A DNA stretch of 61,375 nt, the filler included, from Collodictyon triciliatum (taxonomy: Eukaryota): the NCBI GenBank assembly GCA_043381765.1. It is 21 parts of 21 records of this genome, joined end to end, with 100 filler letters (N's around TTAATTAATTAA, not from the genome) between each part and the next. Parts side by side here need not be neighbours in the genome. Positions count along the whole stretch, not along the records: positions 5,870 to 8,699 come from JBHJMP010008220.1; 20 more parts are not named here. One strand, 5' to 3'. The notes beneath the pieces are model-generated. The model was not told the DNA's origin. It did not search any database and saw only the letters and a program-made list of their open reading frames with translations. The translations under genes and the position numbers were made by a program. Below, one piece after another: positions 5,770-11,346 of this stretch (within the stretch, counting starts at the first letter, position 1; every line of letters begins with the position of its first letter).

Positions 5770-6257
5770 NNNNNNNNNNNNNNNNNNNNNNNNNNNNNNN
5801 NNNNNNNNNNNNNTTAATTAATTAANNNNNNNNNNNNNNNNNNNNNNNNNNNNNNNNNNNNNNNNNNNNTTTTCTTTTTCTTTTCTTTTTCTTTTCTTTT
5901 CTTTTCTTTTCTTTTCTTTTCTTTTCTTTTCTTTTCTTTTCTTTTCTTTTCTTTTCTTTTTTTGTCGCTATTATCCACGGGTCACAGCGCCAACACTTTG
6001 TGGAAACTAATTTGAATAGCGATAGCATGCAAAAATTGAATCGCAATACAGAAGCGGACTTTTTTTTTTCCATCTGTTAAAGAAGCGATACTTCGCGCGC
6101 GCTGTGGAGATGTCGATGAGAATTTATGATTATACTGGAGGGGGTATACAATATTTCGATTGGTAACATGGTTCGTTAGTATCCAAGGTCCCATCACTTT
6201 TTTCACAAAGGTCATGTAGTGGCGAAGGCTGCCAGGATAGACCCGACGATATATTTT

Positions 6258-8353
6258 TTAAGGAGATATATGCATTCTTTGTAGGATAAAAAGAACTTTG
6301 TTGAGTATATTTTTAGCGCTGTTTAACTCCCTTGTCGAGAATACACTTTGTTTGCTTTCTGAGCGATTACATTCTTTGCATATGTGACATTTACACTTTT
6401 TTTTTGAATTTCCTTTCAGTTTCATATATTCCAGTTCTTTTTCGCAGTTGCAGCAAATCTTGGAGGTTCTAAATTCATCTATACTAACTGCTTCAAAACG
6501 ATTGGATAGTATTTTTCGTAATCCTCTTCCGATTGTTGGCATAAAACATTTCATCGGAGATTTTCTGCTCCAGTCTCCATACGTCAGTACAACATCCTTG
6601 CCAAATGCCTTTTTGATTCGGTCCATAAACAATTCTTCACTGCTTTTTGTATTACCATACTGTCTCCATCTCACTTTTCGAAAAGTTACTTGTTCATAAA
6701 ATCTGGATAATTCTATCTGATATCTTGATTTCATAGATACTTATTTTCGAAATTATTCATAATCGACCATGCGTGAATTATGTTTACTCAGTTCTGTCTC
6801 TAAATCGATTAAATATACTAATGATGTCTCAAACTGCTGATTCTCTTCAAAAGCCCTGTGACCAAAAGAAACAACACTGTGTAAACCTGTTTCCATGCAT
6901 ACCCCTGAAGTATTGTACTTTTCTTTTTTCTCGCGTAAGAGTATTTTGTGATTTTTAAGAGATTTGCTACCATGTCTTCTTTGGTGTGTCGTGTAACGTA
7001 ATTTCTTACCTGTCTCATCCACCATGTAAACCAAACTAAACTTGCCAACATTCTCTCAAACTACTATTTTTTTGCCGCTAATAAAGATTTTTTTTTCCTT
7101 TATTCGATTCAAAGTGTAGCGAGGTTATGCCATACAAAGGGGGCGGGATGGGAGCGCATGGGAGAGAGCAAACGCGAGTAGGAGAAGACATTACCGTGGA
7201 GAGGGTAGCACTGGAAAGAAATCAGTGATAGCGAGTTGGTCAGGTGGGCGACCCAACTGGTTGATTGGTTGCGTGGGTAGCAGGGGTTGAAATTGCCGCT
7301 AATAAAGATAACTGCTCTTCGGAAAGCTCATGTATATAGACATATTCTTGGATTTTTGATTAAATTGGAATCTTGAAATTGAAAACCCATTCTTTTCTAA
7401 CAATAATGACACCGCCAAGCCGTCTGTTTGTATCATGTATTTAAAATTGTAGTATCTTTGATGAAAACCCCTCTTCTCCATTTCAAAGATCTTATCCCAT
7501 TGGGTCTCTTTGCATCCTGATATATTCTTCAGTAATAATGTTTTTCCAGTTGATACTAATAGATATATCAAGCGTGCAGTATCTAAAGTAATATGACATG
7601 GTGTATTGTTTGTTCTTATAGAGATTGGTTGAAGCAGTTTGGTTCCAATGTCATCAAAAATGCGATTCATGTAAATCAGACATGGAATGTACTTATTTGG
7701 ATTGACTTTGATGCCATATTTGATACCATTTTCAATGTCGCTGGGAATGATACAATGCAAATGCATTATAGCCCATTCTTCATATTGTTCCGGTATTTCG
7801 AGATTCTTGAAGATGGCTTTTTTAACTTTCGTAAATCTGCTTTTTTAATAGCTTCCGTAATATTCTCATCTTTAGGAAGTATTTGATTTATAAAACGCAA
7901 TAACCTCTTTACGAAATGTTCCTTAATGTTATTATGATAAGCTGTTAACATTTGCTTCGCCAAGTACGGTAACACATGAGACAGTCTAACCAATCGGAAA
8001 GCGTTCTTTTCGGGACAAAAGGAATCGAAAATCATTGAAAAAAAATCATCATGTCGATACTCATTTCTGGATGGTTTAATCTCGCGAGTCTATCTTGTGA
8101 AACTATTCTGACTGTTTGTAAAGCGTACAAAAAACATTTCATCGATTGTTGGGAGTTGTTGTGATTTCGATATGTAACATCTTGCAAACAGATAAGTGTC
8201 GGTAACCAATTTATGACACAATAGAACCATATAGTTGATTTTGTCATAGTCATCTGCATTTTTTACAATCGACTTTAGAGATGTTTTCACATTTCGGTAG
8301 TCTGGTTTTACATACTTGAGATTCTCAGATTCAAGGCGTTTTCTTTTCCTCAT
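6258..8353 (-). pseudogene. Fanzor1 (eukaryotic TnpB/Cas12-like RNA-guided nuclease), frameshifted and interrupted
   Basis: Collinear ORF pieces in shifting frames: MRKRKR..KTSLKSIVKN, MLTAYHNNIKEHF, QPISIRTNNTPCHITLDT, MIQTDGLAVSLL, LVYMVDETGKKLRYT, FYEQVTFRKVRW, YGDWS, MPTIGRGLRK, IDEFRTSKICCNC, CKEC, TRELNSAKNI. No introns evident. RuvC-I DPG is lost and RuvC-III RD has become RE. Confidence 0.9.
7072..7309 (-). mobile_element. 5'-truncated non-LTR retrotransposon insertion (204 bp, 7089-7292) with 17-bp TSD, inside the Fanzor
   Basis: TTGCCGCTAATAAAGAT is repeated exactly at 7072-7088 and 7293-7309. The insert ends (minus strand) in ...CCTCGCTACACTTTGAATCGAATAAAGG-polyA and begins with 33 open codons followed by TAA. 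Confidence 0.9.
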
Positions 8354-9054
8354 CTGAAAGCCTTTGTTTTACCTTTTCCTCTAGAAAACTACCGAGTTTT
8401 CAATTTTAATAAAACTTAATTCAATTAGTCAATTTAATAAAAAAAAAATACCTGCATAAAATCAATTCAGGTAAAGTGAAGCATCTACCGAGACTCTCAA
8501 AATGTGCGCATTGTGACAAACAAACTCACCAAGTTTTTTATATGTGATTTGAGAAAAAACGCTGAGAGCCGATTGGCGAGTTCGAAATGACAGCTGTTTT
8601 GCCATTGCGACTGAAAGTCAACATATCGGCCCCAAACAACATGATTACCACCGCAAGTGTGGATAGTATGCTTTTTTGAAATGCATGTTTGGTGGCAGGN
8701 NNNNNNNNNNNNNNNNNNNNNNNNNNNNNNNNNNNNNNNNNNNTTAATTAATTAANNNNNNNNNNNNNNNNNNNNNNNNNNNNNNNNNNNNNNNNNNNNT
8801 TTTTATTTTTTATTTTTTATTTTTTATTTTTTATTTTTTATTTTTTATTTTTTATTTTGATCTTTGTAGTGTTTGAACTTTTAACCACAATTCTACGTCG
8901 CATTGATATTTATAGATAAGGGGACACAGTGTAATTTATCACCATACTATCATTCAACGAATTACAATTCTTTCTACCGTGTATTCAAAATAAACATAAC
9001 TTCGAATTAAATAAGGTGAATGCAGTATCCCGCTTTCATCCCTCGTATCCCAAG

Positions 9055-11346
9055 AACCTATCGACAGTTGGTACGTGCTTCAATCTCCTCCTGGAGAACC
9101 TGACGTTCCTGTCGGAGACATTCGTCTGCAATTGCATCTAACCTATGACATAGTATGTATTCAAATCGCAACAATATGCCACTATACAAATCATTCCAAG
9201 AATCATCTGTCCCTACTATTTTGCTTAATTGTGCACTACCTGATTTTATAGAAGGAACAAACCATAAACAATTTTTAACTTTTCCTTTTTCACAAGGACG
9301 GAGATGATGATGCTTCCGAAAAGTCGATGAAGGGAAAACTATTTGTAAACAGTATGTTTGTTCATCGTACAAATAATGCCTTTTCCATGTTTATTTTCTA
9401 AATTAAAGAAACACAGTAAGAGAGGGTCGAAATCTGATGGCGGCTGACTTCAATGGTTTTCCACATTCACCTGAAAAAATCCCTCACAAATGAATAATAA
9501 TCATAATCATAATCATAATCATAATAATAATAATAATAATAATAATAATAGCAATAGTTTTAAGTATAATGATAATGATAATAGTAATAATAATAGTAAT
9601 AAATATAATTATAGAGCATATAAATGATGAACCCCTCATTTATATTCTCGTAAACCAGGTCTCAGCGATCCATACTATTTGATTAAGATGGGAAAGTCTG
9701 TAACAAAAGGCAGTGTGATACCGAAAACACTCAACCCTAAATGGAAAGATCAATTTACAATGTAATCTTGTCCATTCGCTTGACAGAAACAAACTAAAAA
9801 TAAAATAATTATTCAAATTCAAATTGCAGATGCTAAATTGATAGAAAACATGTAGCGAATGCGCTGTTTGAAACAGATCATATCTGGCTTTTCTTCTGCT
9901 GTTAACGTAGAGTTGTAATCTTTTCATCATAGTGACGTAACGAAATCTAAAGTAAAGATCGAGGTATACGATTATGACTTTGGGAATCCAAGCGACTTTT
10001 TAGGAAAGTGTATAATAGATTTGACTACTATTAAGGTTTTCTTCATTTTATGAATAAGATTTTTTTTTGTATCTTGAACATATATCGTAAACATCGTTAC
10101 GATACGAACCTTTTACTCCATAAGCCAAACCAAATCGTTGAGGATTGGCATTCCCTTCAACCGTCAGAAAACGGAGAGAAAGTAACTGGGGACATATACG
10201 TCGTCCTTCGGTATTTTCCAGAGGTACCGTTAGTCACTTTTTTTCCTAAAAAGAAATAAATTGGCCAACAAATTAACATGCAATTTTATTTAGTGCGATA
10301 ATATTGGTATTCTTTATTTTTATTTTATTTTTGTTAGTATTTTGGCATTCAGATTTTTATTTTCGTAACAAAATGAATCTTCGACTAGTTGCATTGCTCT
10401 TTTTCTTTCTTTTTCTTTCTTTTTCTTTCTTTTTCTTTCTTTTTCTTTCTTTTTCTTTCTTTTTCTTTCTTTTTCTTTCTTTTTCTTTCTTTTCTTTCCT
10501 TTTCTTTCTTTTCTTTCTTTTCTTTCTTTTCTTTCTTTTCTTTTAAGAAAAGTAACACATGCATTAATTCTTTTTTATCAGGATGTATTTGATACCGATT
10601 TGCTAGAGCAAAGAAATCGCGAAATCACAAAGTTACACGAGGTTTTTTTAAAAAAAAAAATTTTATATACTTAAAAGACATCAGACGTAATCATTTCACA
10701 TACTTTTGGTGTATGGAAAAAAAAACCAAACAGCCAGTACTATTGATGGTGTAATTGCACTATTGATTTCGTTACTATCACAACCATCTTTTATTATAGG
10801 CGATTATCACAATGCAAACAAACGAGGCCTTAGAGCTTATTAAAACCAAAGCACTAGTCAATTGTCGTGACCCAAGAGGTTTTTGCAAATTTTCGAACAC
10901 TTTGCAACATTTAATCGTGCATGCATGTGCACTTACATATTATTCTTGCATAAATACATTTCGTTGCTTCAATAATGCTTTGAATTCTCTCGGTTCAAAC
11001 TCTTGATGTATAGGTTTGACACCTCTCCACTGGGCAACAATAAATGGAATGCTTGTTATTGCCCGCTCGCTAATCGAGCATGGAGCAAAGGTTCTCTATC
11101 ATATTTTTGCCTTGTATTCCTCCAATTAAAAAGAACAATCGTGAAGAATTCGTCAAAAAATTTCGATTTCACTATTGATATTAGTAATCTTGGGAAAAGT
11201 GATATCTTTCTTTTTACTTTCATTCGTCTTTTTACTATTGTTCCCTCTTACTTTTCGACAGATGGATGTTACTGATGATAAAGGCTGGACTCCGATGTTT
11301 TATGCAGCCAGACATGGAAGAATGGAAATCATGAAGATGTTGACTG
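9055..11346 (+). CDS. C2-C2-ankyrin repeat protein (partial, multi-exon)
   Basis: Spliced exons give a C2 end (DSWYVLQ..GDIRLQL), a full C2 (GKLFVTVREGRNLMAADFNG-LSDPYY..KTLNPKW..EVYDYDFGNPSDFLG..DWHSLQ..GDIYV) and ankyrin repeats (GLTPLHWATING, GWTPMFYAARHG), with GT-AG introns. Confidence 0.85.

Follow-up and report, generated by a model that had tools for sequence, protein, structure and literature searches.

Thousands of Fanzors have been surveyed across eukaryotes, with up to 122 copies in a single genome, according to PMC10530073, and several from molluscs and other metazoans have been tested (MmFNuc, DpFNuc and BaFNuc, PMC10530073; MmeFz2, PMC10432273). As these two studies present them, the tested metazoan Fanzors are RNA-guided RuvC nucleases with a rearranged Glu, carried by transposons and present in multiple copies in animal genomes. 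The same texts describe a canonical RuvC-II Glu that has become Gly or Pro, together with a conserved Glu about 45 residues away that is essential for cleavage (Jiang et al., PMC10530073), and show published loci with an omegaRNA on their right end, where it overlaps or directly follows the stop codon (PMC10432273). The mollusc Fanzors are classed, in PMC10711439, as Fanzor2-type elements residing in cut-and-paste transposons. For Fanzor1, the structures of Spizellomyces punctatus SpuFz1 (8gkh), Parasitella parasitica Fz1 (PpFz1, 9cf0) and Guillardia theta GtFz1 (9cer) serve here as comparators.

The locus described here lies within a window of 61,375 nucleotides (the whole stretch of DNA analysed) and is read, with a probability of about 95%, as a decayed, non-functional Fanzor1 copy on a 2.83-kb unplaced contig from a eukaryote, probably an animal, and belonging to a multi-copy repeat family. 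It has in common with SpuFz1, PpFz1 and GtFz1 the domain order, from the N-terminal region through RuvC with its zinc finger, as well as a basic N-terminus, a Gly at the old RuvC-II place and a Glu in the D-E-F/Y-x-T-S block. It is nevertheless distant from the solved Fanzor1 proteins (E 1e-10 to 1e-18, against 1e-23 to 1e-37 for its intact relatives), and differs from them in being interrupted and in lacking two catalytic Asp. Its family also stands apart from the mollusc Fanzors, matching Fanzor1 structures only, whereas the mollusc elements are Fanzor2-type according to PMC10711439.

The closest relatives found are P0164, an intact 648-aa open reading frame from a public ENA assembly, and its kin P0163, P0009, P0011 and P0161. 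When P0164 was matched against the contig's minus strand by a frameshift-aware dynamic programme, 374 of the 639 aligned codons proved identical (58.5%), Met1 corresponding to position 8353. The fossil shares with this group an MK/RKRKR start, a variable loop between EKKKY and LIDLET and the motif places that read GVDPGK, YGDWS, NEFRTSK and TRDFNSANNIL in the relatives; it differs from P0164, whose frame is open and whose three catalytic acids are all kept.

Identity and extent of the element

The window consists of about 21 short contigs, some 2.83 kb each, strung together in a row and separated by 20 linkers (for example at 2836-2935, 5770-5869 and 8700-8799) composed of 44 N, 12 bases and a further 44 N, the 12 bases being TTAATTAATTAA in the two linkers read. 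Joins across linkers are artificial, so that neighbours within the window are not genomic neighbours of the fossil, and any finding in the window that rests on neighbours is affected for the same reason. Long microsatellites of the (ATT)n, (CTTTT)n and (TTTTA)-like types occupy contig ends (5675-5769, 5870-5960 and 8800-8860), at which the assembly probably breaks. The next contig carries a C2 domain in two exons (9634-9765 and 9922-10053, plus strand; Pfam C2, E 1e-06 and 8e-05), a split gene that is consistent with an intron-bearing eukaryotic host.

The main features of the fossil-bearing contig are as follows.

5870..8699: fossil-bearing contig, 2830 bp, with linkers on both sides and the Fanzor1 fossil wholly inside
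6212..8353, minus strand: Fanzor1 pseudogene, with its ATG at 8353-8351 and the present in-frame stop at 6260-6258
8336..8353, minus strand: basic N-terminus MRKRKR; the relatives likewise begin with K/R-rich runs
6813..6911, minus strand: variable segment of 33 residues between EKKEKY and LIDLET, poorly conserved
8354..8699, minus strand: 5' flank, repeated in sister contigs; 346 bp of contig remain upstream of the ATG
6144..6211, minus strand: 3' flank, inside the repeat family; sister-contig cover ends between 6143 and about 6170

Read from stop to stop, the minus-strand frames yield, in order, MRKRKR, QTDGLAVSLL, VV*ENVGK, YGDWS, IDEFRTSK, CCNC...CKEC and TRELNSAKNIL, the first of which looks like a nuclear localisation signal. 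Among PDB sequences (phmmer), the 528-residue read-through of the fossil with stops as X (P0006) matches the three Fanzor1 chains at E 9.1e-18, 4.3e-11 and 3.1e-10 and nothing else at or below 0.01. Its C-terminal piece (P0001) matches the same three at 3.4e-12, 6.8e-07 and 2.7e-06, with the next match at 0.33, and its middle piece (P0003) matches them at 1.9e-4 to 0.042. No Fanzor2, TnpB or Cas12 chain appears at E <= 0.01 in this PDB set, which may lack Fanzor2 chains.

A HMMER search over 1.84 billion representative proteins returned 2214 matches at E <= 1e-3, including 107 at E <= 1e-30, headed by the 634-aa P0007 (3e-91); the clusters of the best protein matches are small, with 1-3 members and uninformative names. 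Residues 14-607 of P0007 match SpuFz1 at E 9.2e-37 and P0164 matches GtFz1, PpFz1 and SpuFz1 at E 2.1e-28 to 3.7e-23, both among PDB sequences, and the fossil is also collinear with residues 7-601 of P0004. Similarity to Fanzor1 is thus significant, collinear and whole-length, for the fossil together with its full-length relatives, and much stronger than chance would give. Pfam gave no match at gathering score on five pieces of the fossil (best relevant entry Cas12f1-like_TNB, E 0.037, 14.6 against 26.3 bits) and none at E <= 0.01 on the read-through; of P0004, P0007, P0012, P0163 and P0164, the curated cut-off was reached by P0012 only, for Cas12f1-like_TNB. In addition, two metagenome contigs, L001 (2078-2386, 16.8 kb) and L002 (1273-1581, 23 kb), match P0001 at only 33% identity over 100 residues, in the C-terminal half of RuvC.

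The initial annotation had proposed a near full-length Fanzor1 at 6258-8353, with motifs to be checked by a profile search of the repaired protein. That identification holds: the PDB matches are to Fanzor1 alone, collinearity with the 648-aa P0164 runs from start to end, every listed motif is present on the minus strand in its described place and order, and the best PDB match of the read-through is a Fanzor1 (9.1e-18), with Pfam making no call. The proposed range is right at its start, the ATG at 8353, and probably too short at its end, which would lie nearer 6212. The ancestral stop was probably close to 6214-6212, reached past a frameshift at 6263, beyond which the frameshift-aware alignment to P0164 is weak.

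Lesions of the reading frame and catalytic residues

The path against P0164 requires six frameshifts, one long DNA gap at 7299-7080 and three in-frame stops, all on the minus strand.

8128, minus strand: frameshift 1, against P0164
8046, minus strand: frameshift 2, in a T run
7994..8000, minus strand: frameshift 3, where sister contigs are without one base at 7994
7839..7840, minus strand: frameshift 4, adjoining an A run
7351..7352, minus strand: frameshift 5, with an extra base at 7352 and 7366 in some sister contigs
6263, minus strand: frameshift 6, near the C-terminus
7058-7056, minus strand: stop TGA, in the RuvC-I motif
6753..6755, minus strand: stop TAA, Lys in P0164
6741..6743, minus strand: stop TAA, Tyr in P0164

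The base at 7994 is absent from all 13 covering contigs (X1 5/5, X2 4/4, X3 2/2, X4 2/2; the runs are described below), and faulty assembly, not mutation, may account for the frameshifts located at homopolymer runs or next to them (8046, 7840). Two further stops that show up in single-frame translations, TAG at 8092-8090 and TAG at 7301-7299, both lie off the true reading path in the P0164 alignment.

The segment at 6813-6911 is most likely a coding, lineage-specific loop and not an intron: the segment is translated in frame in both P0011 and P0164 and is missing from P0007 and P0012. An intron was considered at this place and rejected, as no GT..AG pair that could be placed by eye has a length divisible by three, the frame stays open there in P0011 and P0164, and GtFz1 aligns across.

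Counts for catalytic and zinc-finger sites come from an alignment of the read-through with those of the 150 matches listed that are at least 450 aa long, 122 relatives in all.

7047..7061, minus strand: RuvC-I motif VV*ENVGK, ruined, with TGA at 7058-7056 and AAT at 7052-7050
6576..6578, minus strand: Gly of YGDWS, occupying the canonical RuvC-II Glu position; Gly in 122/122 relatives, kept
6474..6476, minus strand: Glu of IDEFRTSK, candidate relocated RuvC-II acid; Glu in 121/122 relatives, kept
6369..6455, minus strand: zinc-finger cysteines CxxC...CxxC, 4/4 kept (CCNC, CKEC); Cys in 79-82 of 122 relatives
6327..6329, minus strand: RuvC-III acid, GAG (Glu) in the fossil; Asp in 115/122 relatives

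At RuvC-I, the acid that is Asp in all 122 relatives has become Asn, with TGA two codons before it, and the residue that follows, Pro in 120 of the 122, is Val. Both catalytic Asp of a Fanzor1 are therefore absent, and the rearranged RuvC-II and the zinc-finger (TNB) cysteines are present. The Gly of YGDWS and the Glu of DEFRTS are 34 residues apart, a pair that fits the rearranged site as reported in PMC10530073, and the two Glu may be equivalent. The loss of two of the three acids would be enough to inactivate the copy, frame breaks aside; judged by its sequence, the fossil is a Fanzor1 homologue, a pseudogene member of the group and not functional.

Much of what had been claimed for these sites at the outset is borne out, namely the replacement of GxDPG by VV*ENVGK, with Asn for an invariant Asp and an added TGA, and the RE in place of RD in RuvC-III, encoded by GAG at 6329-6327. 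A relocation of the RuvC-II Glu to the DE..TS block fits the near-constant Glu there and the constant Gly at the old place. The several frameshifts amount to six on the path against P0164, and the verdict of a dead copy agrees with these six, the three stops, the retroposon described below and the replacement of two catalytic Asp.

Retroposon, repeat family and flanks

The long gap in the alignment to P0164 coincides with an insert just upstream of RuvC-I.

7089..7292, minus strand (poly-A end): retroposon insert of 204 bp, either SINE-like or the tail of a LINE truncated at its 5' end
7293..7309: first copy of the 17-nt target-site duplication
7072..7088: second copy of the duplication, matching the first at 100% over the 17 nt

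A poly-A end combined with a flanking direct repeat is the signature of a LINE-mediated retroposon. The 36-nt tail of the insert recurs at 54894-54929 with 100% identity, on another contig of the window, and shorter parts of it recur on three further contigs (21510-21535, 44948-44973 and 37231-37252). The copy at 7089-7292 looks 5'-truncated, because copies in public runs extend further in the 5' direction, and in contigs from four runs the retroposon has about 10 times the summed depth of the Fanzor part. A tRNA-derived SINE was considered for the insert and rejected, there being no tRNA and no Rfam match. Where the initial annotation had spoken of inserts to be removed, this retroposon is the only one.

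Evidence on further copies comes from contigs of four public runs, X1-X4 (two coded organisms and two freshwater metagenomes), placed on the stretch at 80% likeness or more; the best share of the sampled words of the fossil stretch in any listed public run is at most 0.12. The contigs number 601 (X1), 598 (X2), 139 (X3) and 214 (X4), at 80-100% likeness. These sister contigs cover 6144-8699 and leave 5960-6143 bare, with likeness ranging from below 90% to above 99%, and they are short, the longest pieces among those listed reaching about 450 nt. Their cover in four runs shows the Fanzor sequence to be a repeat with many diverged copies and a 3' edge near 6144-6170, and multiple copies are accordingly found in the contigs of runs that may be other genomes than that of the fossil.

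Some of these contigs bridge 7046/7043 to 7293, 7299 or 7390 without the retroposon. All six of the printed between-joint strings (21-30 letters; reverse-complemented, in the downstream frame) give Asp at the RuvC-I place, and most of the six read G-V-D-A-G-K. Since the bridging contigs have the Asp and are without the retroposon, the insertion, the stop and the Asn are private to this copy or its sublineage. The sister contigs thus carry Asp-Ala-Gly in RuvC-I as against Asp-Pro-Gly in 120/122 relatives, a family-level change. P0161, an NCBI-sourced fragment of 136 aa that is 73% (BLASTP) or 61% (tblastn) identical to the fossil, keeps Arg-Asp in RuvC-III and is out of frame at both ends. Taken at the level of sequence, these observations support a family with less damaged members. 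None of the 375 HSPs from 156 family queries falls outside the fossil contig, so that the remaining 20 contigs of the window hold no second copy.

As to the element ends, 6144-6211 is where an omegaRNA scaffold or a right end should lie, the repeat stopping about 45-70 nt past the probable ancestral stop (~6212). Rfam gave no match over the fossil contig, and the fold of 6130-6420 does not exceed that of shuffled sequences (z +0.77; 149 of 200 shuffles at least equal). Between the flanks no terminal inverted repeat stands above chance, the best inverted match being equalled by 43 of 200 shuffles, and no transposase was found on the fossil contig. The 5' flank at 8354-8699 matched no protein family. 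Summed contig depth rises about 5-fold in 8628-8699, at the contig end, which suggests that a second, more abundant repeat adjoins the 5' side of the Fanzor element.

The initial annotation had further raised the prospect of intact sister copies in this genome, accompanied by an omegaRNA and forming an uncharacterised programmable nuclease family. The first part stands in so far as the family is multi-copy, has members with the RuvC-I Asp and includes an intact relative in P0164; it falls short in that P0164 is only 58.5% identical and no intact full-length copy from the fossil's own genome was seen among the other contigs of the window or those of the four runs. The omegaRNA found no backing in Rfam or in the fold of 6130-6420, and the description as uncharacterised was overstated, Fanzor1 having already been described and biochemically tested.

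Alternative readings and significance

A Fanzor1 is a transposon-borne TnpB homologue of eukaryotes, RNA-guided and with a single RuvC domain. By the published mechanism, the product of an intact relative would associate with an omegaRNA transcribed at the element's 3' end and cut DNA with a RuvC triad made up of Asp in GxDPG, the relocated Glu in DEF(R/K)TS and Asp in RDxNxxxNI; such a nuclease function is presumed to be the ancestral one. Once activity was lost, six frameshifts and three nonsense codons gathered in this copy; two of the three catalytic acids were replaced, and a retroposon inserted just upstream of RuvC-I. No nuclease can be produced from it.

That the gene is instead alive, its breaks being introns and sequencing errors of a poor assembly around a working Fanzor1, is extremely improbable. 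In its favour, captured introns have been reported in Fanzor genes (PMC10530073), two of the frameshifts fall at homopolymer runs, and the contig is a short unplaced piece. Against it stand two TAA codons in place of Lys and Tyr within a conserved block, and the point changes that turn the RuvC-I Asp into Asn and the RuvC-III Asp into Glu. The frameshifts lie within blocks that align without gaps on both sides, unlike introns, and the poly-A insert of 204 bp, flanked by its perfect 17-nt duplication, is missing from sister contigs.

Scarcely more credible is the proposal that the locus is a relic of Fanzor2, TnpB or an IS607-type element, or a giant-virus fragment or contaminant, rather than a host Fanzor1 element. 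Giant viruses do carry Fanzors, as PMC10530073 states, and the C-terminal piece has its protein-atlas look-alikes in clusters of Cas12f1-like_TNB, mostly from giant viruses, their few placed members being mostly Nucleocytoviricota. These look-alikes fit the known spread of Fanzors, however, and have no bearing on the origin of the contig, whereas Fanzor1 chains alone are matched at E <= 0.01 and a search of viral contigs with P0164 found no relative. Moreover, the tail of the retroposon inside the Fanzor gene is common to other contigs of the window, so that the fossil contig has a repeat family in common with the rest of the assembly. The reading as a decayed host Fanzor1 copy is accordingly retained.

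By itself, the fossil is of little weight, dead Fanzor copies being expected wherever the family has spread. Its value is that of a pointer to a multi-copy Fanzor1 lineage hosted by this genome or by close kin, for which the nearest intact relative is only about 58% identical. Fewer tests have been made of animal Fanzor1 than of Fanzor1 from fungi and protists or of mollusc Fanzor2. It may be suggested tentatively, though it is rather unlikely, that the fossil is the trace of a high-copy Fanzor1 lineage still active in the genome of a freshwater animal, with sister copies carrying D-A-G in RuvC-I; if that were true, full-length intact members with their own omegaRNA would constitute a new animal-derived programmable nuclease. 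An intact member, if found, would add an animal Fanzor1 to the candidate set.
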